A DNA stretch of 63,980 nucleotides, counting the filler, from Folioceros fuciformis (taxonomy: Eukaryota), in NCBI GenBank assembly GCA_049999805.1. It is 7 parts of 7 records of this genome, joined end to end, with 100 filler letters (N's around TTAATTAATTAA, not from the genome) between each part and the next. Parts side by side here need not be neighbours in the genome. Positions count along the whole stretch, not along the records: positions 1 to 7,453 come from JBNGIO010001582.1; 6 more parts are not named here. One strand, given 5' to 3'. How positions within the stretch are numbered: the stretch's first letter is position 1; each line of letters starts with the position of its first letter. Under the pieces are notes generated by a model. That model did not search any database and had not been told where the DNA came from. It worked only from the letters and a program-made list of their open reading frames with translations. Below are positions 1 through 56,744 of this stretch, piece after piece. The translations under genes were made by a program, and so were the position numbers.

Positions 1-682
1 CTTTATTAGAACATATGCCAATTAATGAAAGCACTTCAATATGTAGAATATTTAAGAGAATCAATTTAAATAAATGTTAATTTAAAATATTAAAATATGA
101 AATGAAAAACAAACTACAATGGTGTGGAATGGGTGATGTGAAATACCTTTGGAATTTTTATAACATAAAATATAGTTAAACGATCCGTCCTAGATGAAGC
201 GAAAGATGTCGCGGTGTGTTTCTTTCACGACGAAAGAGATCAAAAGACGTACTGGTTTTTTCTGTACCAAGATGTATGTACTGTATGTACCTCGTGTTTG
301 TCCTCGTCCACGGGAGGACCGTTAGCTTACGGCTTCTAGCAGGCCGGCAGTGGCGCTGAAAGATTGGAAAGCAGATAATAATTGTACACTTTTCCTGTAG
401 CAGTACCTAATATAGAAATTAGTGTGAGCGTGAAGATTGGTGGTATACAAAGCGAATATGTTAGTGGAGATCCGACACAATTCCATAGGCTTGTCGGTGC
501 CACCCCTGTAATGTCGGCATCGTTCCTGTTCTATTCCGGGTTCGCATTTTGCTCGAACGCGGAAACGTAGCTGTAGTTATGGTGCCCGCAGATGGTAACC
601 GATCTGGTTAGAAGGACGTGTTGGAAACCTGGCATTTTGAAATGTGAAGGAAATACGAATTGGTGCGCGCCAGAAGCAAGCC

Positions 683-3600
683 ATGGTGCTGTCGTGCTTT
701 GTGTTGGATGTGCAGTCGATGCTGCCTTCACTGCTGGGAGATCTGAAGCAGGTATGGATTTCCTGATGCATTTGAGGATCGGAGCTGGCGCTGGCCAGGG
801 ATCTGGAAGTCCGCTGTGTGGGCATTGTTTCAGTGCTTGCTCCATCTCGGGAACCTGTACGCTCTCCAGAGGGAACGCGACCCAGCGTTGCAGCGGAATG
901 GGATTTCCGTCTGCTGTGTTCACAGAGTTGCTGCTTCAGGCCGTTGTGAGGTTACGCTTGTGGTGGATGCGGATGGCAATCCTGAGTTCAATTTCAAGAC
1001 TGTGAAAGAAGTTTGGTAGTGTGCGGGGGGGAATTTGAGGTGTTTTGTTCGCGCGCAGTTGCGTATCGTCCATGCTGCCAAGAGACCTTTTGTGCTCAGA
1101 GACTTCCACCATGCATTGTCCAGCCTGTCCTGTGGCACAGCTGAGCGGCCGGTGGCTGCATCACTGCCTTCCGCGAATCAAGGCAAGGGAATTGGAGCCA
1201 GCCTCAACCGTTTGCGCCTTTGATGATTCTGGCAGTTCCTGGCTGTTCTGCAGCATGTGCGCTTTGTGGATCGTAGTTTCCGGCTGCCATGAGTAGCGCA
1301 ATGCTCGGTTTGCTGACAGTTCTATCTGTGGTTGAGGCAAGCAGTTTCAATCCTCTCTCAGCTGCTAAAAACCGAGGATGGTATGAGCTCTTGGAGCTGT
1401 CCGGACTCTTCGAAAAAGATTGTGATGATCAGCTGCTGTTTCACGGAGAGTTCATCATCCTTTCAACATACACTGCAGGTAGAGGCATGTGGAAAGTTTG
1501 GAGTCCAGGACATGAGGACTCCGAGGGATCTTTCTCCGTGGGAACATCATGACTCTTTTGGCCTCTGTAGGAAGGAGCGGATCGGTGTGTTTCATTCGAA
1601 TTTATTCACATTCAAGCTCCCGCCACCGAACAGCATCCGAAGGATATCCCCCAGTACAAAGTGGCTGATTTTGCACTGGCTGTTTCGGGCTTTGATAACT
1701 GTACCTGGCTATCTGTTGGATGTGGTCAGTTTCACACACTGCCTTCTGTGGCAATGCACATCTACACACCTGTCCAAGCTGACCAATTTGTCGCTTCCCT
1801 ATAGATCCTAGGACTCTATCGGGCCTTGTGAAACGCTGGTTCAACGACATCACTGTTGATAGTCGAGGACCCCTAGAAGTTGTTATGACATTCCCAAAGA
1901 TGAATGGGAGCACACTTGGACCAATCTTCTGCGCTGCTTATCCAGCAATCATTCCCCTTCACGATACCATTGATCCATGTCAGGTAAGAGAGAATGCAGC
2001 TCTAAATGCCACACTAGTTAGTACTCAGGTTTATCTCTGATGGATCATCATTTAGCCGGCCTTCGCGACCTGGATTTGTTTTGCTACCAGACTTGCAGGT
2101 GCCATGAGGCAGTTATTGGGACGACGGCAAGTGCAAGCTGCATCAAGAAACCCGTGTGTCCTATTACCGGCAGAAAGCTGGGACTTCACGATGTTGCGGA
2201 CAACTGCCTTACAATTGGCTCTCGTACAGTTTTGCACATGCCGTCCTTCAAGACTCCTCCGCCGCTGTCAACAGTGCTCCCCAGCAGTTTGAGCTTCAAC
2301 GTCATCCAGTATGTGAGACTGGACACATTGAGTGCAGGTACAATTTCTAACCACAATCCGAGTCCCACTGCTGTGCCGTTCGTCTGTGTGTCACACGAGA
2401 GGGTCCGGTCCGGTCACGTATTTTACTTTAGGGCCTCCAGATGCTGATTATGACTTGCCTGACGCATAATCCTCATGAAGGACTCCTTTTTGGGCTACCC
2501 CACATCTTAGTATCGTCTTCCGAATTTGATGTTGATTTTTATTCTGAAGAGGACGTTCTGGAGGTTAATGAGCAGAGTAAGTGCTGTTGAGACAAAAGTG
2601 CTTCTATCTGGTGTTGTAACGGGTCACTTGGTTTTCCACATTCCAATGGGAAGGAGATCTTTGGGCGTCGCAGCTCTTCTTGCTCTCTCCCAAGAACTCC
2701 ATTCTGCGGACCTCGGCCTCATTTGTACGTCGTATATTGACGTTAGCTCAAGAACAGTTACAGCATTTCCTTGCTTTTACGCACTGCTACCTTCAGAAAA
2801 CGGATCTTTACTGGCACAGGTACTCTGTCATGCCTTGAGTTGAGTTTGATTCTGGTGTAGGTGCACCGTGCTGTTGTGAGAGATGTACCGTGTTCTACTG
2901 GAACCTGTCTTTGTCCATCTGCATTGTTTCTGTAGCGAATAGCGGCTTCAGAAGAGTTACTTCCAGGACCTCAACCAGGATTCCGTGACTCAACTGTCCC
3001 CGGCCATATAACGAACTCAGTCGCGTCCTACTTCGCTAAGGTGAACCATCACGATGTTAACTGTTTGTCACTTGTCCACCGCGTCTACCTACAGATTGAA
3101 AACTGTTTAACTAAAGTAGTTAAACAGTAGTTCAACATGGTCAACCTCTTACTAAAGTAGTTACTAATAATTCTCCAGGAGACGAGCGTGCAGACGTCCT
3201 GCATGCAGTTCTGAAAAGCCGTTTCTCCATTTCTTCTGAACTCCCGGTCCGTCGCTTCCTTCCTTGGCTAACTCTGACACCGGATTTGCAGGTGAAATCG
3301 GACACCTATGAGCCATTAAGCCAAGAGCGAGGCTGCCACTCTACATTAGCAGGGCTGTTGAAAGAGAGCTTGCAAGTCCGGTACGCAAATTCAGTTATTT
3401 AGTAACCAATCTGGTTTTTGGAACAAGCACTGAAAAATGAGAAAAGCATAGCTCAAGTTTCGATCGAGTTCTAACGACAGCAGAGTGTGCTTTAGGGCGA
3501 GGGACTTCGTCATGGAGGCATCTTGCGCTCTAAATGATCAACTCGGCCCGCCAAATAAGAGAAGTTTCTTCCCTTTCTCAAGGCCTGTTACAAAGAGGGT

Positions 3601-4042
3601 GAGTCCGGCTGGGACACCCAGCCCAACCACCCCGAGGCTGGCCCCCAATCCTTTTAAAGCTCCCACCCAAATTCACAAACCTGAACTGTCACAAGGGAAG
3701 GACGACTCAGACTCAGACTCAGATTCGGAAGACCTCCTTCCCGATGACGTCTCGTTCCTTTCCAGGACCGCGTATGCCCTAAGAAGGTTAACCTGCGAGG
3801 CTTCTCAGGCTAAAGCAGGTGGCGTGGCCAATCCTGGTAGTCCGCAGGTCTGGGGACGGTCATCCTCCAGGAAACGACCTCCTCCGTCAACCAAGGGAAG
3901 ATTACTATGTACAACAGGGTCCGAAACAGGTCAATCCTCCGCAGAGCCTCGAGACTGGGATAATGAAGCGGCTGATCATGTGGTGCAAACACCTGGGAAG
4001 ACAAGACTGCGCAAAACCAAAAGAAGCAAAGTTGATAGTTGA
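683..4042 (+). CDS. Meiosis 1 arrest protein (M1AP)-like protein (plant Os01g0103900-type family), about 11 exons
   Basis: Manually spliced exons: 683-751 MVLSCFVLDVQSMLPSLLGDLKQ; 834-950 CLLHLGNLYAL; from 1059 LRDFHHALSSL; to about 1478 KKIVMISCCF; 1571-1724 EGADRCVSFEF; 1805-1983 GLVKRWF; 2091-2337 TCRCH..CPITG..FNVIQ; from 2481 GLLFGLPHIL; 2675-2819 FYALLPSENGSLLAQ; 2936-3040 RIAASEELLP; 3292-3380 YEPL..ESLQ; last exon to TAG at 4042. Motif order matches recalled plant family members and human M1AP. Confidence 0.8.
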
Positions 4043-4428
4043 GCAAATTTCTGTTGCAAACATTTAGATTCTGACTCTTGAAACGCTCAATCTCAGAGGC
4101 TAACCGGCGCTGGCGCTCCATTGGTTTGAAGGCATTATATGTTAGGCTGAGATCAGGATGCTCGAACTCGAGCGCTCTACGCTGACTGTGTCAGGCTCCC
4201 GACTAATCATATTGGGTGAAGGTGGAGGGATGGAAGGATGGTATATCGTTCTATGCTAGCTTACAGGTTGGCATTTCTGCAGTTGTATGGTACAATTGTA
4301 AACTGAGCAAAGCTCGTTGATGAATATGGAACCAGAAACATTGAAGAGCCTAGCACATGAGTTCAAATTATTTGAGACGACCTTGGAAGCAATCAGCCAG
4401 GAGGTGCTACTGGCTGGCCCCCATGAAG

Positions 4429-5172
4429 TCACACCCGCACCTCCACTTCCAGTGCGCTCTCCGCAATGGTGTCGAGCCCATACTGAAAATTCCGGCGGAG
4501 CTTCTTATTGGGTGAAATAAGAATGATGCGATCCCGAGGGCACTGATCCCAGCCGCCGGAAAGCCTTGCAGCAGGCTTGGAGGCTGCAGATCCCGAGAGC
4601 TTCCCGTTCTTCCCAATCGGCCTGTACCTTTCCAGCCTCCGCTGCACCACTTCATCCAGGTAAGGCCCGATGTGGTAGCCCGTCATGCTCATCTCAGCGG
4701 CGGGGGCGTGTAGGCCAGTGATGAGCAGTTTCATGGCCGCTCGCAGCAACGAGAGGCCCATCTTGGCCTTACTCCGGCAATGCACCCCCGCCCAGCAGGA
4801 CACTGACGAGATCCATCTCCCCGCATTCTCCAGGGATCGCTGCAGCCTGACCTTACGGGATCCCCCCAGCCTCACAGTCTTCATTCTGGGCCTTCTCCGC
4901 TTGGTCATCCTCAAGGGCTGCGTCTCTTCTTCAGGTGGGCTGGTAGGGAGAGGCCCTTCCTCGTTGGAGCTGCTTGCCTCCATTTTGCTCGACGGCCTGC
5001 GCGCAATTGGACACCTGAGCTTGGCTCTGATGCGCTTCACTCCCCGCCAAGACCGGCTGGGCCTCAATCCGATAGGCCGCGCCTTCGCCTTGGTGTGGAG
5101 CTGCAGGTGGAGCTGAAACTCGGACTCCTGGCCCTCCTGCTTAAGCTGGTCATATCCATATGAACTCGTCAT
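4429..5172 (-). CDS. Basic hypothetical protein (247 aa ORF); 5' structure uncertain
   Basis: Long ATG-initiated ORF with GYDQL...RRRPRMKTVRLGG, resembling small plant-specific basic proteins. A GTGAGT donor near 5198 hints at an upstream exon. Confidence 0.4.
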   Translation of the reverse strand: MTSSYGYDQLKQEGQESEFQLHLQLHTKAKARPIGLRPSRSWRGVKRIRAKLRCPIARRPSSKMEASSSNEEGPLPTSPPEEETQPLRMTKRRRPRMKTVRLGGSRKVRLQRSLENAGRWISSVSCWAGVHCRSKAKMGLSLLRAAMKLLITGLHAPAAEMSMTGYHIGPYLDEVVQRRLERYRPIGKNGKLSGSAASKPAARLSGGWDQCPRDRIILISPNKKLRRNFQYGLDTIAESALEVEVRV

Positions 5173-7001
5173 TGAGGTATTTCAGATCTCGCACTCACCC
5201 CTACTGTAGCTGTACAGTGGTGTTCTGTATCCTTCTGTGGCAGTTTATGGGGCCGGAACAGCCCTATGGGATGCTCCAGGGGTGGACAGTGTTGCAAACC
5301 CCGGCAGCCGGCGTACAAGCTGAATCCCACTCCAGGACTGTACGAGAGGGGGAGGCGGGATGTGTTAATATTGCGTACGAGGCCTGGAAATATCTTTCTC
5401 TCCTGACTTCGGAGTCCGGGGACAGGTGCAACAGATCACAGAAATACATGCAGCGCAGCCTCACTGGCGGCACAGCCTTTGGCGAATTCCCTCGAGCAAA
5501 GGGGAGGCCTTACGCCTTTGGAGTCCAGAGCGTGTCCTCTTGCTCTCGATTCTAGCATACCCAACCAACGAGAATATCCAGAGTCAGAGCCTACAGGTAT
5601 GGGCGTGAACCGAGGTGTGAACCGTTCCCCTGCCTACCAATGTCACACTGCTGCATCGGGCGACCCAAAATCCCCACATCCCTCAAACATCTCCAGCATC
5701 TCCCGTCGGATGACTCCTCCCGCCTTGTAGAACCTCATGAGAGTCATCAAATTTGGTATCCCGATTCCCCACGGATGCCCTGATTCACAGCATCCAGCCC
5801 TCACGTGGAGAAGCATATGATAGGCATGGGGTCCAGCTGATGCCTGAGACAGGTCACAACCTGGCCACAAGTTTTAACGGCGTGGTGTAAAGTGAGCCAG
5901 CTGCAGCTGCTTGCTTGCCATGCTCCGGATCCTCCAGGAGGCCAGAAGTCCAGGTTGGGTCGAGACAAGGCCAATGGACGCTGGCGCAATTGGCCTCTGA
6001 GCCAAATGTTGCCCGCTACTGACAGCCGCAACCCCTCTTTTGGCTGCGGAGGCCTGAAGCCGCAGAGTGGGGAAGAAAGTTCCTGAATGTTACATGGTAC
6101 ATGCACTGTTTGACACTGTCCACGGCTGCCACAGCCTGCCAGTGCTGAGCAAGACCCTCTTCCTTCCAGGATCTCTGTCCTTGAACACATGCGGGTGACA
6201 TAGTGCTGATGGCAGCAGCAGCAGCCAGCAGGACTGGGGGTAGGACATTGGGCACCAGTCTGGGCAAGCAGGTTCTGGCCATGGGCCAACTGGTACTGTA
6301 AAGATGCAACAGGAGAAGCCAGGCACATCATGGTACGCAACTAAAGAGTCCTGACTCATGCAGCGTCTGATGAACAGGTGTCTGTAGCCTGGCGTTGCAT
6401 CGTGGGCACTGGGGTCCGGGCGCCTGGCGACGATGGACTGTGGCAGCGGGACAAACGGACAGGCCCCGGCCACCAACCTAGGACAGTGCTAAAGCGAGTG
6501 TGGCCAGGTGAGGGCCCAGCTGAATGCTTTCTGCGCACCTTTTGGAGCCTTGTCCTGACCCTTGACCCTGATCGAGTTGGGTGGGTGGCCAAGTTCCTGC
6601 TTCCACCTTTGATAATGCTGCCTTGCTTTCGCTTTTACCAGCTTTGGGGAACTTGAACTCGCCATGTGTGGGGATTGACAGTCCCTTGGAACTCGATTTC
6701 TGCTCTGGTCGGTGCACCGCAACCGGGTCCGTGAGCTAGATTGGCTGATGCAGAACGTTCGAGATGCCACCGGGCTCGACCTCCAACCATGAGTTTGGAG
6801 AGATGCTTTCAAAGGTTCTCCTGGACGTGCGACGACCCCGATGTGGGATTTGGAAGCCGTGTGCGATCACGGCGCCGGGTGTCGTTTCCGTTCAATGTGG
6901 CCATCAAGACAATGCACCAGATTCCTAGCTGGGATTCCTGAGACACTGGCAGGGAATTCACGGCTACGGAATTCGAAAGAGCTTGAAGCCGAAAAACTAA
7001 T

Positions 7002-7453: not shown

Positions 7454-7553
7454 NNNNNNNNNNNNNNNNNNNNNNNNNNNNNNNNNNNNNNNNNNNNTTA
7501 ATTAATTAANNNNNNNNNNNNNNNNNNNNNNNNNNNNNNNNNNNNNNNNNNNN
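7454..7553. other. Assembly gap linker N44-TTAATTAATTAA-N44 (also at 20279-20378, 41981-42080, 53120-53219, 56645-56744, 61938-62037)
   Basis: Six identical 100-bp spacers with stops in all six frames. Confidence 0.98.
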
Positions 7554-13401: not shown

Positions 13402-16400
13402 TCACACGAGTTCAGATGGGGCTCGACCTCTCCCCTCCGTGCTGTCTCTCTTGATTTGAGGATGCTTCTCATCTCCGACCAGAAAACTGTGCACTTGACC
13501 GTCCATATCGGTCCACCAGCTTCGACCCGGCTGCTTCCATGCCCCGATGCTTCTTCTCCTCTCTTGCATCTCTTGTGCCCGCTCCCACATTTGGGCACCG
13601 GCGCATATGTGCCACATCGACACGTAGGCTGCGGCGTCTTTTCTGTCTAGCTGCACTGCTTGGTCAAAAGCATGGCGACCCACCTCAAAGTTATTCCACT
13701 TCCGGCAAGCACCCAGGAGAGTGTGCCAAACGGGAGCATTAGGCAACACAGGCATTGTCTTTACCAGAGCTAGTGCCTCGTCCAGTCGGCCTGCACGGCC
13801 TAGAAGATCCACCATGCATGTGTAGTGCTCCACGGTGGGAGTGATCCCGTGATGTCGGCTCATGGCCTCGAATTGTTCTTCCCCCTTGTTCACGAGACCT
13901 GCGTGACTGCATGCTCTTAGTAAGCACAGGAACGTCATACCCTCTGCCTGCACGCCATCGTCTCTCATTTTTTGAACCAAGTCAAGGACCGTTTGGCTGT
14001 CACCTTGACATGAGTAACCTGCCAGGAGTGCACTCCAAGTGACCTTGTCCCTTTCGGGCCCTTGCAAGGCATCGAACACCTGCTGAGCATCAGCCATGCT
14101 CCCACACTTTCCGTACATGTTTATTAAACTGCCCGCCACAAACACATCGGCTTGAAGCCCTTGTTCTTCTATCTGTGCGTGCAGCTGCCTTCCCAGATGC
14201 AACGCTGCCACATTTGCGCATGCCTGCAGGAGGCACACGAAAGTCACGGTATCAGGTACAGTTTCACCTTTCTTCTGCATAGCACTGTAGAGACAGAGAG
14301 CTTCCTGGCCCATTCCCTGCTGGGAATACCCTGCGATGATGGCATTCCATGTTACCACATCCTTTTCACCAACCCCATCGAATACCCTGCGAGCGACATC
14401 TAGGCTGCCACACTTTGCATACATATTTACCAAACTGTTACCTACAAGCATATCAGCATCATCACCTCGTTCTCTAATGTGCACATGAACCTGCTTCCCT
14501 TTCTCCAACGCCTTGCTGCCCAGGCTTGCACATGCCTGCAGAGTGCACACAAAAGTCACAGAATCGGGTACAACGATTCCCTCTTCTCGCATACTATCGT
14601 ACACGTCAAGGCCTTCCAGACCCATCCCCTGCTTTGAATACCCTCCTATCATTGCATTCCACGTCACCACGTCTTTTTGAGCAAGTCCATCGAACAATCT
14701 TCGAGCCTCTACTATGCTGCCACAATTTGCATACATGTTCACCAAACTGTTGGCTACAGCCACATCAGCTTCATGTCCTCCTGCGATAATTTGCACATGA
14801 AGCTGTTTCCCGGTCTCCAGAGCTGAGATGCCCACACTCGCACACGCCTGCAGGAGGCAAAGAAAGGTCACCGAATTGGGTACAGCAACGCACACGTCCA
14901 GCATTTCCGTGTACAGGCCAAGGGCTTCCTGGCCCATGCCCTGCTTGGAGTACCCTGCAATTAGAGCAGTCCATGTCACCACATCTTTCTCACCCAGTCC
15001 GTCAAATACTTTTTGCGCATCATCCAAGCTGCCACACTTTGCATACATGTTCACCAGACTGCTGGCCAAGTATACATCAGCTTGGAGTCCCTGTTCTCTT
15101 ATCTGCTCATGTAGCTGCTTCCCCATCTCCAAAGCTCGGGTGCCACCACTTGCACATGCCTGAAGTAGCCACACAAATGTCAACGAATTGGGAACCACAT
15201 TGGCTTCTTCTTTCATGGAACTGTAGAGACGCAGGGCTTCCTGGCCCATACCCCGTTGGCAGTAACCTGCAAGAAGAGCAGTCCATGTCACCACATCCTT
15301 TTGACTGAGTCCTTCAAACAGTCTACGAGCATCATCTACGCTCCCACACTTGACATACATGTGTACCAGACAGTTGTCTAGAAACACATTAGCATCATGT
15401 CCTTGTTGTCTGATTTGCGCATGAAGCTGCTTCCCCGTCTCCAAAGCTGGGGTGCCCACACTTGCACATGCCTGTAGCAAACACAGGAACGTCATGGAAT
15501 CAGGTGTCGCACCGCCCTCTTGCTGCATAGCAGTGTAGAGATGAAGCGCTTCCTGCCCCATGCCCTGCTGGACATATCCTGCTAGCATGGCGTTCCATGT
15601 CACCACATCCTTTAGACCAAGTGCTTGGAACACTCTCTGGGCATCGTCCAAGTTGCCACACTTGGCATACATGCTAACCAGACTGTTGGCTATTATCCCA
15701 TCAGCTTCATACCCTCGTTCCCTAAGCAGTGCATGCAGCCGCCTTCCCTTCTCCAACGCCGGGCTGCCCACACTTGCACATGCCTGCAGGAGGCACACAA
15801 ACGTCACGGAGTCGGGCACACCAGCGCCAGCTTCTAGCATAGCACTGTACAGACGGAGAGCTTCCTGCCCCATGCCCTTCTGAGAATACCCTGCTATCAT
15901 GGCAGTCCAAGTCACCACATCTTTGTGACCGATTCCATCAAACACACTCTGAGCATCATCTAAGCTGCCACACTTTGCATACATATCCACCAGGCAACTA
16001 GAAACGAACGGATCAGGCTCAACGCCCCTGGCCAAGACATCAGCATGCACCTGCTGCCCAGTTTCCAAGTCTCCTCCCCTTGCACAAGCCTGCAGGGCTG
16101 CCACAAACACATGACCATCGGGCTTCACACTCGACCTGCGCATCTGATGATACAGTTGCAGGGCCTCCCTGTCTCGTCCCTGTTTGACATGTGCAGAAAT
16201 GATGGCAGACCAGGTGAAGGCATCCGGGTCGCCAACCGATGAAAACACATCCATCGTATCTTGCAACCTGCCAAGAGCAGCATACATCCTCAGGATATGG
16301 TTGCACAGGAACGTGTCCGACTGATACCCCTGCGCCACGGTGAAAGCATGGACGCGGCGACCAAGTACAAGATCCCTCTTGACGACACAATTCTTCAGGA

Positions 16401-16824
16401 CAATATAAAGCAGAGACTTGGACACGCAACAATTCGTCTGCACCAGAACTCCCAAAGCCTCCACAGCCTCCGTGACACGGCCCTGGTCACACAGCATGCT
16501 CACGGATTCAACCGTTACGTGACTTTCATATCCTTCATGCCTGCCATTGTCAGAACCATCCAGCAATTGGCCATTCTTGTCCACATCGAGCGCAGCATAT
16601 CCAGCCACACATCCTCTCGGACTGGCTAGGTCTCTTCCAAAGGTTGTGGACCTGCCAGCTCCATTGTTTGCCAACAGTTGGATTCTTGAATTCAGGCCAG
16701 CTGGACGACATCCAGCTCCCCTGACTTCGCTTTGTCGGACAAACGGCGACCCACCCGTTTGTTCGGTCCATGAAAACTGTCCACGTAAAGGGCAGAGTCT
16801 GTAGGACATTGGTGGCTGACTCAA
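13402..16824 (-). CDS. PLS-class pentatricopeptide repeat protein with E/E+ end and truncated DYW (putative organellar RNA-editing factor)
   Basis: Intronless 1140-aa ORF. Repeated P-L-S triplets (DVVTW.A.I.GY..; PD.VTF.CLLQACAS; N.LV.MYAKCG.LDDA..VF), then HYTCMVDLLGRAG, the PG box WKQPGRSW and HSFLVGDEKHPQ. Confidence 0.95.
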   Translation of the reverse strand: MSQPPMSYRLCPLRGQFSWTEQTGGSPFVRQSEVRGAGCRPAGLNSRIQLLANNGAGRSTTFGRDLASPRGCVAGYAALDVDKNGQLLDGSDNGRHEGYESHVTVESVSMLCDQGRVTEAVEALGVLVQTNCCVSKSLLYIVLKNCVVKRDLVLGRRVHAFTVAQGYQSDTFLCNHILRMYAALGRLQDTMDVFSSVGDPDAFTWSAIISAHVKQGRDREALQLYHQMRRSSVKPDGHVFVAALQACARGGDLETGQQVHADVLARGVEPDPFVSSCLVDMYAKCGSLDDAQSVFDGIGHKDVVTWTAMIAGYSQKGMGQEALRLYSAMLEAGAGVPDSVTFVCLLQACASVGSPALEKGRRLHALLRERGYEADGIIANSLVSMYAKCGNLDDAQRVFQALGLKDVVTWNAMLAGYVQQGMGQEALHLYTAMQQEGGATPDSMTFLCLLQACASVGTPALETGKQLHAQIRQQGHDANVFLDNCLVHMYVKCGSVDDARRLFEGLSQKDVVTWTALLAGYCQRGMGQEALRLYSSMKEEANVVPNSLTFVWLLQACASGGTRALEMGKQLHEQIREQGLQADVYLASSLVNMYAKCGSLDDAQKVFDGLGEKDVVTWTALIAGYSKQGMGQEALGLYTEMLDVCVAVPNSVTFLCLLQACASVGISALETGKQLHVQIIAGGHEADVAVANSLVNMYANCGSIVEARRLFDGLAQKDVVTWNAMIGGYSKQGMGLEGLDVYDSMREEGIVVPDSVTFVCTLQACASLGSKALEKGKQVHVHIRERGDDADMLVGNSLVNMYAKCGSLDVARRVFDGVGEKDVVTWNAIIAGYSQQGMGQEALCLYSAMQKKGETVPDTVTFVCLLQACANVAALHLGRQLHAQIEEQGLQADVFVAGSLINMYGKCGSMADAQQVFDALQGPERDKVTWSALLAGYSCQGDSQTVLDLVQKMRDDGVQAEGMTFLCLLRACSHAGLVNKGEEQFEAMSRHHGITPTVEHYTCMVDLLGRAGRLDEALALVKTMPVLPNAPVWHTLLGACRKWNNFEVGRHAFDQAVQLDRKDAAAYVSMWHICAGAQMWERAQEMQERRRSIGAWKQPGRSWWTDMDGQVHSFLVGDEKHPQIKRDSTEGRGRAPSELV

Positions 16825-17189
16825 TTGCCATACTCCAGACTTTCACCAGAAGGAGCTGAGTCCATCCACAGCTCCATGCTTTGTCATGCAGGACAAGGGG
16901 ATGTCCCGTTGTCCAATTCTACACAGATACATGTGGATCTGTCAGGAGCACTCCTTTAATGGAGATGACCACGCCCATACGCAGTTTGATGAGGTCATGA
17001 CATACATACAATGGTGACATGCGATGGTCATGAATGAACTACAGAAGCTCGGTGCCGACGCCTACGTCACATGCAGCTTTTCTGGGATACTTTCTTTCTC
17101 AAGAGCCTGCAGGATGCGCGAAAAGGCGTTACATGTGACTCAGTAAGCAAGCTGTATCATGAGGACCAGCGGTCTAGCTCCATACGGCC

Positions 17190-18860: not shown

Positions 18861-20586
18861 ACTATCCCACTGACGACCTGTGTCAGAAGATCTGATCTGG
18901 GGCCAGCTCAGGAGCGCGCAAAGTGTCGGCCGGAAAAGGCATCGAAGCCGGTTGCCAAAATCTTCTCCCATTCCAGTCGAAGTCGCTGCTGCGATGGGCA
19001 AATGGCACCACGCCACCAACCCAACGTCCTCGTGAAAGTTGTCGAGGCGGAGCAATTTACGTAGGAGTCTCTTGAGTCTCCACCACGAACTCGCACTGGC
19101 ATGACAGGACGGAACAGAAGACAACAGAAGAGTAGAGAACAGAACAACATGCTGCAGACTCCTTTCTCCTTCTCACATCATGTTTAGGAGGATAATCCAT
19201 GCATGGGCAGAGTATGCAAACTCGTCCACATCCAGAGGGAAGGAGGCCACCAGCATGAGCCCATCCGCATCCGCGAAAAACAAAAGGACATGGATAAGGC
19301 AGCCCCCCACAAATGTTTTAGTATGTACATACTATGGCACTGCTCCAGCTTGTGGATGGGTTGGTGGCGTGCTGTGTGCGAGTGGCCACTAAAGTATGTA
19401 ATTGAGGGGAGGCCGGAATCCCCTGATTTGGTAAAGCCCCGTAAAGCGAAACAATGGCAAGTGCAAACGTGAGACATGCGCCATACCTGTCGTGCCTGAC
19501 CGTGGTGGAACAAGAAAGAAGGGCGAGCGTGGCCAGGTAGGCATCTGTCCAGTCCCATGGGACCGGTCGCAGGCCAGGCGGGGGACCGGAGATTCACGTG
19601 GCAGGAGCGGCAGGCTCGGCTCTGGCTCCCACGTTGTCCCAAGAAAGAATGCTACCAGGAAGGCTACCTTAGTTAGTCAGGGCCAGCCAGGACCAGAGCC
19701 AGCCAGGGCCATGGTCAGAGCCAGAGCGAGAGCCAGAGCGCCAGAGCCAGAGCGAGAGCCAAGCCGCGACCTCCCTCCTTCTCCGGCCTAGCCCCCCAAC
19801 TCTCCCCCCCTTCCTGCTTCCAAATGCGCCTCGCATCCGCGGGGCAGCCAGTTGTAGCTCACCACCGCTCTCTCCGACTCGTCGCCATCAGGAACGGCCG
19901 CGGCGGCAGCAGCAGTAGCCTCGGACCGCACGGCTCCCAGTAACGTCTGGACGTGTCCCTGCTGGACATGCCGCGCCCAGCCTCGGCTCTTGCGACCGTG
20001 GCCAGCGTGTGAGCGCAATTGGGCGCAAGAAGTGTGGCGCCGGGCTTGCAGGTCTTGTTTTCTGGCGATGCGGCGTTGTGGGCGGTTCTTGGCGGGATGA
20101 AGCCGGGAGTAGAGTAGTGGACGTGACTTCGTTGTGGGTCGTCGGAACCGAAATGCGACTTCTCTTCTTCGTGCTGAGCAGGTGCCGGCACTGCCCTGCC
20201 CTGCCCTCCCCTGCCCTTCTCGGCTCTGCTGTGAGTATTTAAGATGGGGTGGAGAGTGCAGGTTGCGGGGTGCGTGGGNNNNNNNNNNNNNNNNNNNNNN
20301 NNNNNNNNNNNNNNNNNNNNNNTTAATTAATTAANNNNNNNNNNNNNNNNNNNNNNNNNNNNNNNNNNNNNNNNNNNNTTGAGGAACCGCTACCGGCATG
20401 CTGTGGATACGAATATTGCTAAGTACTCCGAAATGGTGGACGGAAGACTCTTTTCTGCGCAGGGCTCATTCCTAATTCCGTGCAGGGTTCTTGCTTAAGA
20501 ATGAAGAGCGACCTCGTGCTCCACACCAAAATTATCGAAAAGAATGAGTCAGGACAAAATTGTTAAAAAAAGAAAGTTATCTCCTC

Positions 20587-40242: not shown

Positions 40243-42175
40243 TTGCGCGCACATTGAGTCGCGCATTGAGGCCCGGCAGGGTAGAGTTCACTGGATGCCC
40301 AGCCTAGCCTACAGTCGCATTGCATCAGCCTGCATACATACAGTATGTGCAGAGTGGTTGCAGTGTGCAGCAGCGCTGCAGAGCATTGCAGAGAAGGGCA
40401 GGCGAGCATAATGCGCTCTGTGACTTTTGCATAATGCCGAGCCAGGGGCATGAGAGTCTGGCAGCAGAGCAGAGTCATCCCGTCCCGCTCACGACCCCAC
40501 TTCGTACCCCAGCCGCGCCAAGCCCAGTCCAGGCCAGGTCAGGCGCAGTCCCAGCTTGCAGAGGCGAGCGAGGAAGTAAGGCGGGAAAGAGGCGCGAAAA
40601 AGAGAAGGAAAAGGGCCAAAGGTCTAGATGGTCGAGTTGGCGGGGCCACTTGTACTGGCCACCCGCGCGACATGTGGCTGTGAGTTCGCTGACTAGCTGG
40701 CAGAGGTGGGCCCCACCTGAACTGGTCGCAACGTTTCTTTGGCGTTACGTTTGCAGGCGGGGCAGATCATGGCATAATAACATAGCATAGGAAGGCAGGC
40801 AGGCCCTGGTTCCGAGGCCGCATCGCGGGAATAGCATCCGGTTTGGTTTGCGGTGGCCTAGACAAGAATAGTGTAGAGAAGTGTTGTGTAGTGTAGGGTA
40901 GCGTAGTGCAGTGTACTGCAAGGTATCCAAATGCATATCGGGGCCCGGATTGGGCCGCGGCCCCGACATGGACTGGCCGGGTTTGCGGGGGGAGGCGGAA
41001 GAGGTGTGGGCTATGGTGGGAAGGGAGGAGCAATGAGTGCACGGCAGCAGGGCAGAAATTGGCAGACTCGCGTCGCTCGCTGCTGGCATGCTTGGCTGGG
41101 CTTGGCTTGGCTGGGCTTCGCCTCGCCTTTGCCCTGGCCTGCTTTGCTTGCAGAGTGCATTGCACTGCACTGCACGTTCTAGAGCATCTAGACTTGGAGA
41201 TCTGGCCAGTAATCTAGTGCGGATAATGTGGGTGGAATAATAAAGGGCCCAGCTGGGGGCGGGGGTGGCAAGGCAGGTCAGGTCAGGTCAGGCCAAGCCA
41301 GGCATCTCGGGGCCGGGCTTGGGGGTGGCCTGGCCAGACTTGCTTTTGCTTGCTTGCGGTAACGTGCCTTTTCCGGATCCCGAGTGTAGGTAGATAGATG
41401 TGAAGGCATACGTATGGGCAAGGTACATTGATGGCGCTCAGCAGCTGGTGCCGGTGCTGGTGCTATGGCCTGGCCGGGCCCCGGAGAAAAAGCGAAGGTG
41501 CGCATGCGGGTAGGGTAGTCCATCCAACCTGGGCGGGGCCTCCGCCTTGCCCTCCCCGTCTCCTCCTCCCTCGGCCCATGCTCGGCCACAGGATTCCGTT
41601 TCCGTCGTCGGCCACGGCGCCACAAACAAGGTGCCAAGAGGCCAAAGGGCGGGCCGCGTGAAATGGGGGAAAGAATGGAAAGAATCGAGATCTTCGAATC
41701 TGGCTGCAGCTGGAGCTGGGCCTGCTGCGCCTGCGCCTGCGCCTGCGCCTCTCTCTGCGATGCGGCCAGGGCCAGGAGGAGGGCGTAGGCGACACGTCGG
41801 GGCTTGGGGAGGGCGCGCGCATGCACACACCACACCTCACCACTCCACACCACAGGCCAACAGTGCCGCACACGAAAGTGGGCAAGACAGGGGCGAGCGG
41901 GTCGCGGGAGTGCCAAAGTGGATCCCGCAAAGCAACAGGCTACAGCGCAGAGGACTCTTTCCGGCCTCGCCGCTCTGCTGNNNNNNNNNNNNNNNNNNNN
42001 NNNNNNNNNNNNNNNNNNNNNNNNTTAATTAATTAANNNNNNNNNNNNNNNNNNNNNNNNNNNNNNNNNNNNNNNNNNNNGCATTGCAGAGTGTCAATTT
42101 GTGTTCAATATCGTTTCCACCAACCACTTCATGCCCTTACAGAAAACTTTGATAATCTGATGTGTGGAAATACAG

Positions 42176-45333: not shown

Positions 45334-48300
45334 TCAAAAGTTGTAGCTCCTGGGCTTGTCGACAGTACCCTACAACACAGAGGCAGACGAGAGAAATTAT
45401 TAGCTTGAAGTTCAGACTTATAAGTATTCATGAATAACAAGCTGTGCCGTTGAAAGAACAAAGGGGATATCCAACTTGTACATTGCCCTGGACGTAATAA
45501 GCCAGTTGGGACTTGAGCGTCGCGATTTCCTCCCTGTATGATTGCAACTTCAGCTCAACAAGATTTTTTGCCTGCACGCAGAGTGTTGTCCAGGTTCAAG
45601 TGAGCAGACAGGAAGCTGACAAGAAAGAGAGCTGATACAAACTATATATTAAAGGCAAAAGGGTACGAGGGAATTATTGGCCTGTGCAAATGTTGTGATA
45701 GTTGCCGTGAGCAGCAGGAAACTATCAAGAAACAGAGGCTAGGAGTACACACACGGAAATGGGGACAAGGGAGACAGTTGTCAGAGGCAGGACCTACCTT
45801 CTCACATATTGCAACCTGCCATAGGTGCACACGGAAAATTTAATAAGATAACGTTCAAACTGATACTTCATTTGGTGCACGAAATTAGCTAAAGGAAGCA
45901 TTTATTCACCACTTCCAGATCGTTTGATGGAAGGCCGTTAAGTTCCAGAAGGTTTGTTTCCAAAGCCCCACCAATCTTTTCTAGAGTATTCAGTGCCATT
46001 CTGAGTCGTCTGAATTTCACACATCCACGATTATCAGCACAAAAACGAGGGGAGAAAGAACACGGGTGTTGGATCATGCGGACAGTGGAAAACTAACCTT
46101 TGCAGTACAAATACCACTTGATCTAATGTGCCATCTGTTGCACAACTAGAGGCGTTTGAGAGGCCCGAGTCCAGAGGTAGATGAACCGAGAGCATCCCTG
46201 AAGCTTGAGGATCTCCGGCTCTGCTCACACACACATGCATCTCAATCCCCTTAGATCCTCTCTACCTTGTGAGCAGTAATGCCAACAAATCATGTAGTCA
46301 AGTAAGAATGAGAGGAAACAGGAAACTTATGTGTGCTGTATGTAGATCGTGATACTGACGAGGCGTGCTCACCTCCCATAGTAACCACCTCCATTTGTAT
46401 GCTGATCATCCAGCTCCCCCCTGTTGACAGCTGATAAGGCGGAGTACTGAGCAGTCTGTTGGTTGTCAACTTCATGCCTGTCGTTGAATAGAGTTTGTAC
46501 TCGACTCTCATACATAGAGTTGTTGACTGTCAGAGGCTGCATTGTCACATCTTGGTAAGGAGCCACGGCTTGAGATGTTGCCTGTTTTGAGCCCAATGCT
46601 TGTCGAAAGTGCTGGGCTGACGTGGTCACAGCAGATGAACATGTTGGGCCAGTAGTCGGTAGTCGTCCAGGGAGCGACGAATTTACTGATGAATATGAAG
46701 ACATGTGAGTTGGTGATGGTGTTGGTGGCATAAGTGCACTAGTACCAGCATGTACTCCTTGAGGTGTTGCTGTCTGTCTCTCACCATTGTCGTATCTTTG
46801 AGCTGACACTGACATATTATTTGATGCGAGCTGCTTGAAAACATCCCCATGCGACTGATCAGATGCTTGAGGTGCTGTGGACAAGCGGGATCCAAAAACC
46901 GAAGACGCGTGTGCCTGTTGACTTGAACCCTGACAGGTAGAAACTCAGCGACATCAGCGGTCCTCGCTTCCTGATCTCTCTGAGACCCCTAGAGGATCAA
47001 ATGGGCTAGAAAATGGAGTATAAAACAGCGTAATCAGACCTTGTTGCTTTGTTGTGCTGCACTTGAGCGGGCCATCAAAGAGGCCTCCGCAGAGGAGCCG
47101 CTATCAATCAATTGCAACTCCTGCACATGTAAACACGTGATTGCAGCATCTATCATTAACGCTCAATGACTAGCTCGCAACTCCCACGGTGCCCGCCACT
47201 GATACCAACCTGTACTCCTTGCATTGAGGCAGGAAGCAGATATTGCTGTTGCTGGATAACATTTGAGTGATGTCTGTGTGGACCTTGGTGTTCTATGCCT
47301 TGATTAGGCACATTTAACTGCTGGGTACCCAATGTCTTCTGCTGTCTTGGAGTGCTTTTTCCAAACAAGTCTGATGCATGCAAGTTTGCAGTTTGAAGCT
47401 CACTCATGCCATCAAGCCCCTCTGGCATTCCATACTGTGTCACCAAAGCCAGAGTCAGGTGATCATCTCTATTCTGACCTTCCATCCCATTTCGATCCTG
47501 GCATTGTCCCTGCACAAAAAAGAACCTTAGTTAAGACTGATTTCACACAGATGCTGCATGCTTAGTGCTTGTGCCCGCATCATGTCATTGAGCAGAGCTG
47601 ACGATTCTCCATAAAACGGAGCTCACCTTTGCAGACAACTGAGTTTCGAAATCTTGTCGAAGCTTCTCTTGTCTTCCAAAGTCTTGCTCTTGGTTTAAGT
47701 ACTCTTGCCGTGCAATCTCCTTTCTCTGTGCGTCATACTCCTGCCTTTGTCTCTCTTGTCTTGCCATTTCCCTCTGCTGTCGAGCTTCGTACGCCTGTCG
47801 CGCACTTTCCTGCTGAGCCACTAATTCCTGCTGCTTCTCATACTCTTCCCTCCGTGATCTTTCTTGACTTTCAAGCAGTTCTCGCTGTTGAGTTTCATAA
47901 GCTCTCTCCAGTCTAGCATTCTCTTCGCGACGAGCTTCCATGTCCTTTCGTTCTCTTTCCTGTCTTGCTGCCTCTTCTTGGCGAGCTTCATACTCCTGTC
48001 TTTCCCTTTCCTGTCTTGCATGCTCTTCCTGCTGTGCCATCAATCTCTGCTGCCTTGCGTTCTCTTCTTGTTGCCGTTTATCTCTGGCAATTTCTTCCTG
48101 CTGGGCTTCATATTCTTGCCTGGCCGTTTCCTGACGAAGAACCTCTTCCTGCTCTTCTCTCTGTTTCTTTTCCCTGGCAAGCTCCTCCTGCCTGGCCCTG
48201 TCTTCTTTGGCCTGTTGAAGAAGTTGCTGAAGCTCAACTTGCTTTTCAAGCATTTCTAGCTCCTTTGCTTTCATGGCTTTGCACTCCTGCTCATGATACC

Positions 48301-51300
48301 AGAGTAGCTTGGTGAAAATACAAACTTCACACTCTGTATCAAGGAGAGTGGCATTCTGCATCACTGGAAACCTTACCTCATTTAGTTTCTTCAACTCCTC
48401 TTCCTGTCTCTTCCGCGCCTGAAATGATGAGATTCAACACCTTGGTGAAGAAGAAAATATTGATACAACCAACAGGTTCACAATGCATTAGCAGAACACA
48501 ATTACTTCTTGAACTCCATCCCTACGAAGAGACGAAACACAATTACTTGTTCCTGCGCAGCCTTTTCCCTAGATAGCTTTGCTTCCAACTCTCGTTGCAG
48601 GGCTTCTTTTTGTTTTTGGAATGCAAGTTGCTCTTCTCTCGCGGATGCATCCTACGTCATATTCAAGGGTGTTGAATCAAGCATACATGTCCGTCAAGAA
48701 TTTCAGGTGTCCAAAAGAAAATGGGACCGACGGAACAATTCAAGCTCTACGTATGCAACATTTGCAGACAATTTTTGCAACCACATAACACTGCTGTCCC
48801 GTGATAGCAGTACAAACATAAGAGTAGGCACTCTTAGAGTCATACTGCTCCCCAAGCTTCAAGCTAAACAGTACCTAAAATATCTGCATAGCATGTGTGC
48901 GATCGGTCTACAGGTTCTAAGGAATACCAAGCGCTGCCGCTTTTTCTGTGCTTCTCTTTCTTTCCTCTCACGATCATACTCACGCTTTCTTTCCTTCCTT
49001 CTTTCAACAATCTGCAAGAATCTGGTTCGTGTGTCAGAGCCTTCTACCTACGAATTAGATGTTTGGCAACGAGCAGATATGGAAAGATCAGAAGGTGACC
49101 TCGTGGGGGATGGACGCATCCCATTCTTGCTCTGGCTCTTCGTGCCTCCGATATTTCGGATCCGGGTGATAGTCACAGTACCTATCCGACAAGCCACAGC
49201 ACCCGAGTTCCATCACATCGGCAATCGGCGCTTTCAGTAGAAGAATCAAACTTGAAGCTCCTGACGATCACAAAACATGAGATCGTGTAGACTATTATAG
49301 CTCACCAGATGTCAGGCAAAGAGGTGGGATCCGCGCAATTGGGTAGGACACGCCACTTGAGACAGGTCGGGTTGTCGCACTGGACCTGGTGGGAGAGTTT
49401 CATTTAGGCGAACTCCAAGCACACTTTACCTCCAACAAACAGACTGAGAACAGGTGTCCACATACCCATACAACATCAGGGACATCCTCCGAAGAAGGGC
49501 CCTGACCAGGACGCTTTGGTCGTGGCTCAGATTGCAGCACTGCTGTAGCATTGCGCTCCTTTTTCTCCCACCTACAAAGGATTGTGTAAAAGCATTTCAT
49601 ATGCCTTCAACTGTGCAGCGCTCAAGAACCGCACCTACCAGTACTCAGCCAACACATCCGAAAGTTTCTTCAAGAGTCGTCGATAAGCAATTGTATCGTC
49701 GAAATCCTGCGTAGTGCGCAGATGTGTCAAACCAAAGCGTCTTCGAAACTATAGACAGGACCAACAATTCGAGCAAGACGTGCCTGCTTGTTATGAGTCG
49801 GTTGTAGAAAATCTGCCTCAACGATTCCAATGACCCCCATACCCCTCTCGTTCTCCTCCAATTGAATGCCCACCTGAACCGCAGAATTTAAGGGAGTGAA
49901 GCATCAGAGCTATAAAGCTCGACATAGCCAACCTTAACCAAAAATCCCGAGAACAGCACACACCCTCATGTAGGCCTTGATTAGTCGGTTCCGATGGTAA
50001 AGCATCATACCGTAGAGATTCTTGTTCTCCGTATTGAACCTACAAGACAAGAACCATATCAGACCAAACACCCTGCCGACGACATTTAGGAGTAATTCAA
50101 TCAAGCTTGTGATCTGCAGTGCAGTCCAAAGACCGTAAACTTCGAAAGGTAAAGCAGTCTGAGATATGAGCATGCTGTGGAGTCCCACCCTAGCTCAATC
50201 TTTAGAGTCTCCGACACTCCAACTGGCTTGTAGGTCTCCGTCTCTTTCATGCTGAGCAACCCAGATATCCTCTTCGTCTTCACTTTTTTGTCACTACACA
50301 AATAACCCTCCGTTGGAGAAAGGCTATACTCTGAGAATGCACAAGATTGAATTCCACCAGGCATTTCAGGGCCTGTACCGTATGAAGATCTGCATTCGTG
50401 GCACTTTGTACAATATAGCGACATATGCACGCAACGAGTAATCCGTTGTGACGTCTACAGAGTTGGGCTGCAGAGCAATCAGATGACAATCAGTACAGGG
50501 CTCTACCGAATCCGCGACAGGTGATGAAGCTTTTCATGAACCAGAACAGAGCAGAAAAGTCCCAGATTTTCCCGGGTATGTCGCTGAACCTGCCAGCTAC
50601 ACTTGTGCCTTGGAATTTAAGAACATGTTTACCTTGGAAGTCTTGGCTGTTGCAAACCCAACAGCTAAGACTTCATAATGCCAGTGGTACCTGATTTGGG
50701 CGCAGCTGCTGAAAGTGGGATGAGCTGATTTCAGAAGTTATACGGATGTCATGTGGGTCACTCTTAAAGTCCAGTTCTAGATGACCCTCATGTCGGCGCA
50801 AGTGCGATATTATAAGGATCTGCGACAATCAGCGGGTAGACGTGAATCAACAGCTGGATCGTAAAATTCTACTTTGGAAATTGAAATCAAACATCCCACT
50901 CCGAAAGCTACCAAGGACACAAGGCATTCAAAGGCTCCCAATTCATCTGACAGAAAGTACTGGTGAGAGTGGACTGACCCCCCTCACAAACAGTGTTCTA
51001 CTTTGTGTACACTTACAGCTCCAGTCTGCGGAATGGCTTCTAGCTGAGCGAGAAGACTTTCTTCATCAGGGAATATGGAGTATTCACAGATAGCCGCCAA
51101 GCTTTCTTCAGCATCTAGGTCCATTTCAGAAAGTCTATCTGTTTTGTGGTTGAGGATTTCAGTCGAACATGACATCACAACAAGGGCGTCGAGGTGGGCA
51201 ATGTTAACAAGTATCAGCCAATGTCCAGCTGCAGTTATGGGCAAAAGACATCTCCTGGAGGATACTTCCATTCAAGTCCCAGGAGACCTGTGGTATGAGA

Positions 51301-52291: not shown

Positions 52292-54553
52292 TTGCGTCCG
52301 GTTCCGTCGGAAGAAGCGGTAGCCACTACCAAGCGTTAAGCCAAGATGTTCACATCAATTGGAGCGCTCCATCCTGCGTGTGTCGGTCCTCAAGCCGGCA
52401 ACAATTGCCTGAAAACATAGCCGACCGAGACAGAGTGGACACCCGACCTAAGGCCACGAAGGAGCGTTCTTGCTCCTCCCCATTCCAGAGCTCCGCTGCC
52501 CATCAGGCGTCCCTATCCAAACAATTCCATTGTCACTGGCCAACTGTGTCCAATTGGTGGACGGCCGTGATGGGCACCACGAGAGCGAGCTGGGAGGCGA
52601 GGACCGTACATAAGCAACACGGCAAGACGGCAATAGGCCCCCTCCGTTCACCTGGCCGTAACTCTGATCCTCCCAAATGAGAATGCAAATGCCCGTCGCC
52701 CAGAGCTGACTCGGCGTGATTGACCGGCGCCCGATGTACGCCCCCTGAGCCACGACACCGCTCAGTCAAAGGGAAGCAGCAGCAGCAGCAGTCATTCACA
52801 GACAATAAGTGGGGTGGCACAAAATTCGATCTGCCCACATTCCCAGCCCGATTGTGGGCAAATTACGATTCCAGCTCACATGAGGAATGCACCTGGCACC
52901 CAGTCACACGCGTTCAAATTCCCAAGTCCCACAGCAGCATCCGACAGCAGGTAGGACAAAAGGCAGATGCTTTGGGGCTCCGCAACCCGAGGAGGCGGCT
53001 TGCGCACTGCGGCGCAACGCAAGAAGCGCGGGCAAGCTAGGCGAAGGTGGCGGAGGAGGCAGCGCAGTGCAGTGAAGCAGTCAGAGGCGCATTTGGTGCA
53101 GGAGGAGGAGGAAGAGGAANNNNNNNNNNNNNNNNNNNNNNNNNNNNNNNNNNNNNNNNNNNNTTAATTAATTAANNNNNNNNNNNNNNNNNNNNNNNNN
53201 NNNNNNNNNNNNNNNNNNNTGAATTTTCACCTTATCCATGGCGGAGCAGGGGCCTCCGCGACCTGTAGCCAATGCCGAGCCTCCAGTAGCCACGCCCACA
53301 AGCCTCAGATCCTGCACCTAAGCCCTACCGCTCTAAGCCCTAACACGGGTCCGGCGCCCGGAGACCATGTGCCCCACCCTGGTGCCGCAAGCCCGGGGCG
53401 ATAAAATTCGATTTCCCGCGGCGACGCAATTCGATTTCCAACGGCCTCCGCACCCGATGGGCCGGCGCTGAGAAGAGGAGCGCAGCGCAGAGTGTCGCGA
53501 GGCCCCCGGCCCCAGGAACAAGTCCCGCGGCAGGTGGGCACAAGGAGCGGCGCTCGGAGTCCCCCGCCAGCCCGCTGTACGGGCGCCCGCTCTCGCCCCC
53601 GCACCTGCTGCACAACCCACCTGCAATGCCCGCCGCGTCACACAGCAGAAGGAGAGCAGGGCAGGGAGCCGTAGCGCGGGCGGAGAGCGGATCCAGCGGC
53701 TCGGGGAGGGCAAAGCATTCGGGCTGTGTTGGAGGTCACTGGTGGTGGTCGCCACCCATGACGACGTCCCAGGCAGGCCGAGAAAGGGAGGACGGGAGTG
53801 GGAGGAGCAAGCGCAGCGGAAGAGGGTATGCGAAAGAGCCGAGTAGCGGCGAAGAGGAGAGCAGGAGTGAAGAGAGGAGAAGAGAAAGAGCCTAGTCCGT
53901 CTGAGGGGCTCGGTTTGAAATTGGTACATACAGCCACACCAGTGGCAGACTAGGGCTGTGCTGGGCAGCGAGCTTGAATAAGTAGGCCGTGGCCGTGGCC
54001 CTGGCCCAGACACTGGGCCCCTGCTCGTGCCATCGTTCTCATCACAGCCATTCGCTTTCAAATTTCAACTCGCCTCTTTAAATTAAGGGTGCCAACGTCC
54101 CGACTCCCAATTTCAGTATCTCTGTGCAATTAATCTCCACAAAATGAACTTCTTAAGCCAGCCACGAACGTGCATTACGTACATTCTGTATTCCAAAGCA
54201 ACACCTTGAAAGAAAAGATAATGGCTGAAGTAGAAGAGTCATGAATGGAATCTCACTCGTTTTCTTCTCCCAAGGAAAGACCAAACATCTTTTTAGGAGT
54301 TGTTCACCCTTGGAACACGAAGCGTACTACAACATGCTATTAAAACTAAGTCCTACGAGATTGCAATACACGATATAGTTATGTCATGCATGCAATACAA
54401 ACAATTCAATATCGGGTGCCATAAATGATCGTGTACTATGAACAAGAATATGTACCTAGATATGTTCAGTGTTGGATAATGACAATTCTGCAGGGAAAAA
54501 CAATGCAATGAATTGACATTGCAAGAGCCGAGCCGTGAGACATTAGAGAGCCT

Positions 54554-56644: not shown

Positions 56645-56744
56645 NNNNNNNNNNNNNNNNNNNNNNNNNNNNNNNNNNNNNNNNNNNNTTAATTAATTAA
56701 NNNNNNNNNNNNNNNNNNNNNNNNNNNNNNNNNNNNNNNNNNNN

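Follow-up and report, generated by a model that had tools for sequence, protein, structure and literature searches.

A spliced gene of Folioceros fuciformis encodes a land-plant protein with a predicted Ku-like fold, most likely related by orthology to the meiotic protein M1AP

Results

The window analysed here is a 63,980-nucleotide stretch of Folioceros fuciformis DNA (NCBI GenBank assembly GCA_049999805.1), filler included, made of seven parts of seven records joined end to end. Positions 683-4042 on its plus strand hold an intact, transcribed plant gene whose product belongs, judged by sequence, to a family present across the land plants. The family has a predicted Ku-like fold and is most likely orthologous to M1AP, a protein that supports class I crossovers in mouse and human meiosis; the evidence for orthology is indirect, and we consider it considerably better than an even bet. 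The full reading we prefer, to which we give a probability a little above one half (about 0.55), is that the protein is a plant M1AP orthologue acting as a Ku-like dimeric scaffold, that it is a partner of the ZZS complex in class I crossovers, and that it carries a zinc-binding cluster.

Gene structure and transcript

The gene consists of 12 exons and 11 introns and encodes 668 amino acids (aa), its coding region extending from an ATG at 683 to a stop that ends at 4042. The original prediction had described an intact gene hidden among about 11 short exons that splice into one frame. The RNA-derived contigs and the 668-codon frame bear this out, including the positions of start and stop; the exon count was slightly low, and the peptides quoted from the window are all present and lie across the junctions given for them. 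No long open reading frame reveals the gene (the longest frames in 683-4042 are 164 and 196 aa). A first gene model was built by hand from canonical splice sites and was then compared with contigs from a public run (X1), tentatively classed as RNA, over window positions 1-5500. The run matched 66% of the sampled words of 683-4042, approximately the exonic share of the stretch. Because its contigs are spliced, the run represents processed transcripts; contig depth was zero in bins 1-552 and there was no cover upstream of 553-597, which fits RNA and not DNA.

Ten joints in the contigs corresponded to 10 of the 11 introns. Eight of the 11 introns had been predicted exactly (752-833, 1479-1570, 1725-1804, 1984-2090, 2338-2480, 2820-2935, 3041-3291 and 3381-3495). 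Two donors of the first model were discarded: the end of exon 2 at 1010 (intron 1011-1058) was replaced by a contig joint that gives intron 2 as 951-1058, and the end of exon 3 at 1209 (intron 1210-1344) by one that gives intron 3 as 1183-1344. Intron 3, as read from the spliced contig, is a non-canonical GC-AG intron with the donor context AAG/GCAAGG, its joint carrying two ambiguous letters and reading GC..AG when shifted 2 bases rightward. The corrected spliced product scored 360.9 bits against a fern protein (P0007) compared to 326 bits for the uncorrected model, and these higher scores provide independent support for the RNA-based donor corrections. The features of the gene were as follows.

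597-682, plus strand: 5' untranslated region, minimum extent (contig record 1 begins at 597)
683-751, plus strand: exon 1, with the start codon and the predicted first beta-strand of the vWA-like domain (joint 748 to 831, 82 bases, GT..AG; the N-terminus aligns with plant homologues)
834-950, plus strand: exon 2 (joint 948 to 1057, 108 bases, GT..AG)
1059-1182, plus strand: exon 3, followed by the GC-AG intron 1183-1344 (joint 1180 to 1343, 162 bases; the junction restores a QVS motif common to homologues)
1345-1478, plus strand: exon 4 (joints at both ends)
1571-1724, plus strand: exon 5 (joints at both ends)
1805-1983, plus strand: exon 6, with the predicted end of the vWA-like domain, the predicted start of the barrel and the first Cys of the Cys/His motif (C258, 1978-1980; joints at both ends)
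2091-2337, plus strand: exon 7 (82 aa), with CRCH (2094-2105) and CP (2157-2162; joints at both ends)
2481-2576, plus strand: exon 8 (acceptor from joint 2335 to 2479; donor at 2577 placed from the homologue alignment only)
2577-2673, plus strand: intron 8 (contig record 4 is unspliced over 2479-2819)
2674-2819, plus strand: exon 9 (donor from joint 2817 to 2934; acceptor placed from the alignment)
2936-3040, plus strand: exon 10, with the conserved RIAASEE (2936-2959), a motif in the predicted dimer interface (joints at both ends)
3292-3380, plus strand: exon 11, with the conserved Y-x-P-L..ERG (3307-3333), a motif in the predicted dimer interface (joints at both ends)
3496-4042, plus strand: exon 12, with a Ser/Pro/Arg-rich tail, a basic C-terminal end (3983-4039) and the stop (joint 3379 to 3495)

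Intron 8 (2577-2673) had no joint in the X1 contigs, and a 341-base contig with a depth of 30.4 spans 2479-2819 unbroken. Contig assembly drops rarer isoforms, so the missing spliced form of this intron proves nothing. With intron 8 retained, translation would end at 377 codons, and most of the predicted dimer interface would be lost. The depth of the retaining contig was equal to or greater than that of most adjoining spliced contigs (12.7-33.3), and a contig of lower depth (8.7) retained intron 7 too (2309-2508).

A land-plant protein family

An exhaustive search of 1.84 billion representatives with exon 7 alone (82 aa) gave 24 matches at E <= 0.001, well outside what chance would produce; the best had E 2.1e-14, two were at E <= 1e-10, and most of the 24 were proteins of ~600-670 aa that aligned at the equivalent position. 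A word-indexed search of longer proteins with the same exon gave 54 candidates, none at E <= 0.01. The spliced product aligned end to end with plant homologues, with E values of 1.9e-110 to the fern protein P0007, 1.2e-108 to a lycophyte protein (P0004) and 8.3e-106 to a third relative (P0008). By their source names the relatives come from the fern Adiantum, the lycophytes Diphasiastrum and Selaginella, the liverwort Calypogeia, the gymnosperms Taxus, Ginkgo and Cryptomeria, and many angiosperms. The relative from cotton, used as a query, returned 393 proteins at E <= 1e-5, and among the 120 matches listed every organism-named one was a plant; a profile search with one alignment (A1) returned eight proteins, all plant. 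On these sequence matches the window protein is a member of a family that extends across the land plants. Its identity was 34-37% to the aligned non-angiosperm relatives and 29-30% to those of angiosperms. The Arabidopsis thaliana member (P0138; 641 aa) was 55% identical to the cotton query and 29.4% to the window protein. A Hibiscus relative is labelled 'like AT5G07380' by its source, and by that label the Arabidopsis member is AT5G07380.

These alignments also bear on whether the locus could be decaying or non-functional, with a main transcript that is unproductive. Intron 8, seen only in its retained form with the ensuing premature stop, would agree with decay, as would the replacement of one family-invariant Glu by Ala in the window protein. 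Set against them, however, are a 668-codon frame that is open over 12 exons, the precise splicing of 10 introns, end-to-end homologue alignment at E 1e-110, and the tendency of contigs to lose rarer isoforms, which makes the absent spliced form of intron 8 no proof. We regard a decaying locus as very improbable.

Predicted Ku-like fold

The fold was modelled with AlphaFold2 on the closest relative, P0007, and not on the window protein itself, from a 19-sequence alignment. The model had a mean predicted local distance difference test score (pLDDT) of 59.2 and a predicted template modelling score of 0.42. Most 10-residue blocks up to residue ~470 fell at pLDDT 65-89, and the tail (470-638) lay at ~30. 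All 30 matches listed by Foldseek against the PDB were Ku70 or Ku80, the best being 5y58_A (E 4.6e-13, probability 1.00, ~500 columns). VIA-align comparison of the model with 48,161 representative chains gave the matches below, with root-mean-square deviation abbreviated as rmsd.

vWA domains: Z 16.6, rmsd 2.8, 180 residues aligned, model residues 1-222
Ku80 (6erf_B, 8ag4_B): Z 14.1, rmsd 5.0-5.2, 298-307 residues aligned, model residues 1-429/474
INTS13-INTS14 (6sn1_B): Z 14.0, rmsd 17.1, 285 residues aligned, model residues 3-474

The ordered part of the protein (~1-486) is thus predicted to have the build of Ku70/80, namely a vWA-like alpha/beta domain at the N-terminus, then a beta-barrel and a helical arm, with a disordered tail following. 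This likeness is one of structure. Identity within the structural alignments was 9-14%, and in sequence the family showed no tie to Ku or Integrator. None of 21 relatives matched the Pfam families Ku, Ku_N, IntS14, Mat89Bb or VWA_2 (14 scanned at E <= 0.1 and seven at E <= 10), the scans giving sub-threshold noise only with a library that lacks PF28287, and none of 11 window exon translations matched any family of this library at E <= 10. Profiles built from 12 and from 64 plant sequences likewise found only noise among the sequences of the PDB (E >= 0.11). The metal ion-dependent adhesion site (MIDAS) is a D-x-S-x-S motif after the first vWA strand; in the family consensus the Asp after that strand is kept and both Ser positions are not conserved.

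Link to M1AP

A 2024 survey (PMC11377751) assigns human M1AP, like INTS14, the overall architecture of KU70 (KU86) proteins and suggests four human KU paralogues. Since human M1AP has been published as Ku-like, a Ku-like fold in the plant family is what would be expected of an M1AP relative. A search of the ESM Atlas with the lycophyte protein P0004 placed the chordate M1AP cluster as the best non-plant structural match among the ten matches listed, with 416 aligned residues, template modelling (TM) scores of 0.49/0.56 and an Atlas score of 1682; the Pfam family M1AP_N is found on 100% of the members of that cluster. Ku clusters scored at most 963 against the same protein (TM 0.49-0.53 / 0.46-0.63). 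The Arabidopsis protein P0138 gave the same Atlas feature ranking as P0004, there being no P0138 model in the Atlas. In Pfam 38.1, M1AP_N (PF28287) was present on 21% of the members of two plant clusters near P0004 and P0138 (cosine 0.96-0.97). Three plant relatives (P0025, P0132 and P0159) are named 'Meiosis 1 arrest protein' by UniRef or NCBI, so that some plant members are already labelled as M1AP in public databases, and two other plant relatives are named 'Ku domain-containing protein' by UniRef.

A plant homologue of M1AP had been the central proposal of the original prediction. The Ku-like fold, the Atlas match to chordate M1AP, the presence of M1AP_N on plant clusters and the names given by sources all speak for it, and they reach orthology indirectly. 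A competing explanation is that the family is an independent Ku-like paralogue, either a very divergent INTS13/INTS14-like protein or a plant-specific Ku relative, and that the M1AP labels stem from likeness at the level of the fold. In its favour, the TM scores to M1AP and to Ku clusters are similar, the VIA Z score for INTS13-INTS14 (14.0) is tied with that for Ku80 (14.1), M1AP_N is found on just 21% of plant-cluster members, and two relatives bear the name 'Ku domain-containing protein'. The Atlas score for chordate M1AP is, however, well above that of any Ku cluster, no INTS cluster is among the ten matches listed, the Atlas has plant Ku proteins in clusters of their own, and the 21 plant relatives are all without Pfam Ku, Ku_N, IntS14 or Mat89Bb matches. 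We judge an independent paralogue unlikely, and orthology with M1AP remains the preferred explanation.

Cys/His cluster

The CRCH...CP motif reported in the original prediction is present and is conserved across 64 plant sequences. In these aligned sequences (P0007 numbering) no variation occurs at C263, C265 and C285, and conservation is at least 90% at C260 and H266. The equivalents in the window protein are C258, C261, C263, H264 and C282, encoded at 1978-1980, 2094-2105 and 2157-2159. The cluster, located at the start of the predicted barrel, has the pattern C-x2-C-x-C-H with a further C ~18 residues on. Of the 167 collected proteins of at least 400 aa, 155 contain a C-x-C-H word; some unrelated cluster-mates and gene-model fusions are part of that set. 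From its residue pattern the cluster probably binds zinc.

Predicted homodimer and tail

Residues 1-490 were modelled as two copies in three runs together with three controls. The interface score ipSAE was 0.70 for the dimer (runs 0.72, 0.69 and 0.70) and 0.00 for the best of the three controls. Of 30 proteins solved as one-chain pairs, 21 attained the mark applied to such dimers, compared with none of 23 solved as single chains; among eukaryotes 17 of 29 attained it, yet only one of the seven that had no older solved relative. The three runs shared at least 45% of contacts, with a partner pLDDT of at least 63. The predicted interface is symmetric and made by residues 302-487, that is by the barrel and the arm, and includes a stretch LS(E/A)GLLFG as well as RIAASEE and Y-x-P-L..ERG, motifs to which the original prediction had drawn attention and which are conserved among the plant sequences. 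A strong enrichment of conserved residues in this interface was considered and dropped, the enrichment being weak (p = 0.06). Homodimerisation is suggested indirectly, by the model. The tail of the window protein has a high content of Ser, Pro and Arg and a basic stretch at its end, and seed plants retain further tail motifs. Deletion of the last 97 residues of human M1AP abolished binding to TEX11, according to a 2025 paper (PMC12162868).

Proposed role

The same paper reports that mouse and human M1AP binds SHOC1, TEX11 and SPO16 and has a supporting part in class I crossovers, and another (PMC12407729) lists M1AP as one of 17 class I crossover proteins. The plant protein would form a probable homodimer joined through barrel and arm, a dimeric scaffold of Ku type that would leave its vWA domains and tail free to recruit partners. 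By analogy with mouse and human M1AP, the likely partner would be the ZZS complex, in plants SHOC1-ZIP4-PTD. A scaffold of this kind might hold ZZS at recombination intermediates and so favour class I crossovers. The ZZS partnership and a meiotic role in plants are what we infer from the animal protein. A bolder version, which we offer tentatively and which falls some way short of even odds, would make M1AP an ancient fourth Ku paralogue that predates the plant-animal split and forms a Ku-like homodimer through conserved barrel and arm motifs; the plant protein would have an extra zinc knuckle and be an unrecognised accessory of SHOC1-ZIP4-PTD, and productive splicing of intron 8 might be limited to reproductive cells.

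The family might share an ancestor with M1AP and still act outside the ZZS crossover pathway, as a Ku-like scaffold that serves somatic DNA repair, chromatin or RNA processing. The transcript was found at depths of 9-33 in a run with no stated tissue, and a restriction to rare meiotic cells is not apparent. End joining and Integrator both employ Ku-like relatives. The searchable supplements (few and short) of two Arabidopsis meiosis papers (PMC3018465 and PMC13674485) did not contain AT5G07380, and no plant meiosis paper naming it was found in the literature searched. On the other side, M1AP binds ZZS proteins and promotes class I crossovers in both mouse and human (PMC12162868), ZZS is conserved in plants, and the family has been kept across land plants, all of which have meiosis. 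We find a role outside the crossover pathway doubtful, and an M1AP orthologue that partners ZZS is retained as the preferred reading.

Several observations weigh against this reading, or against parts of it. The TM scores to M1AP and Ku clusters are alike at ~0.5, and only the Atlas score, obtained with one query (P0004), separates them. The database names, Pfam hits and Atlas results are not three independent lines, because they may share underlying signatures. The searches with exon 7, with profiles and with the cotton relative returned no animal M1AP sequence among the matches listed, and PMC12162868 traces the conservation of M1AP no further than fish and considers it evolutionarily younger than the ZZS complex. 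The Glu of the LSEG motif, found in all 64 aligned plant sequences, is Ala in the window protein, and the sole contig over exons 8-9 retains intron 8, giving a 377-aa truncation. As to the dimer, its pass may come from the model's memory of Ku70/80 or INTS13/14. Column conservation was 0.719 in the interface compared to 0.655 in the rest of 300-490 (p = 0.06), and 22 of the 43 positions at least 90% conserved in 300-490 belong to the interface, which accounts for 47% of 300-490.

If the preferred reading is true, a land-plant counterpart would move the origin of M1AP to before the plant-animal split, contradicting the published view of a vertebrate-only protein younger than ZZS, and plant meiosis research would gain a candidate crossover factor. 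Crossover factors are breeding targets. The predicted homodimer and the Cys/His cluster offer concrete hypotheses for the build of M1AP-type proteins, including the human infertility gene. The literature searched contained no paper on a plant M1AP, and it named AT5G07380 in only one paper, an unrelated one on terminators. Some plant members already bear the M1AP name in public databases, so the proposal has been partly anticipated; the window contributes a further member to the family.

Other features of the window

Downstream of the gene, a convergent neighbour on the minus strand (4429-5181) is a 250-aa open frame with no Pfam match. One contig of 2.6 kb extends from 3495, at the last exon, across this neighbour and past 5500, so the 3' ends of the two transcripts meet or overlap. 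Further features lie outside the gene; among them, the pentatricopeptide-repeat protein with its E motif and the copia-type element are in keeping with a land plant.

13402-16842, minus strand: single 1146-aa open frame of a pentatricopeptide-repeat protein (PPR_2, E 1.5e-125) with an E motif at its end
47585-48433, minus strand: 282-aa open frame in which Glu, Gln and Arg are abundant and ARQE(Y)E-like units recur, coiled-coil-like and with no Pfam match
57198-61592, plus strand: Ty1/copia-type retrotransposon with gag-pre-integrase, integrase core and RVT_2, in three consecutive same-frame open frames with stops at 57926/57927 and 60620/60621
7454-7553, 20279-20378, 41981-42080, 53120-53219, 56645-56744 and 61938-62037: six places each consisting of two 44-base N runs around 12 bases (528 N in total), several of which adjoin low-complexity, dipeptide-repeat-like sequence

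Comparison with known systems

The Ku-like architecture published for human M1AP (PMC11377751) was also found for the model of the plant family. The two differ in length, the aligned plant relatives being mostly ~600-710 aa and the chordate cluster representative 566 aa, and the plant proteins carry the conserved CxCH..C cluster. With Ku70 and Ku80 the plant family has in common the predicted three-part fold of vWA domain, beta-barrel and arm, and the predicted plant dimer uses the barrel and arm; unlike them, however, it had no Pfam Ku or Ku_N match in any of the 21 plant relatives and no match to the PDB at the level of sequence. INTS13-INTS14 is likewise a Ku-like pair with vWA domain and barrel, and its VIA match reached a Z of 14.0 over 285 residues but at an rmsd of 17.1. 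The INTS13 and INTS14 clusters had Atlas feature scores of 0.91-0.92, ranking below M1AP and Ku, and no match to IntS14_b-barrel, IntS14_C, VWA_2 or Mat89Bb was found in the plant relatives. AT5G07380 and its angiosperm orthologues belong to the same family as the window protein, which is 29-37% identical to its aligned relatives.

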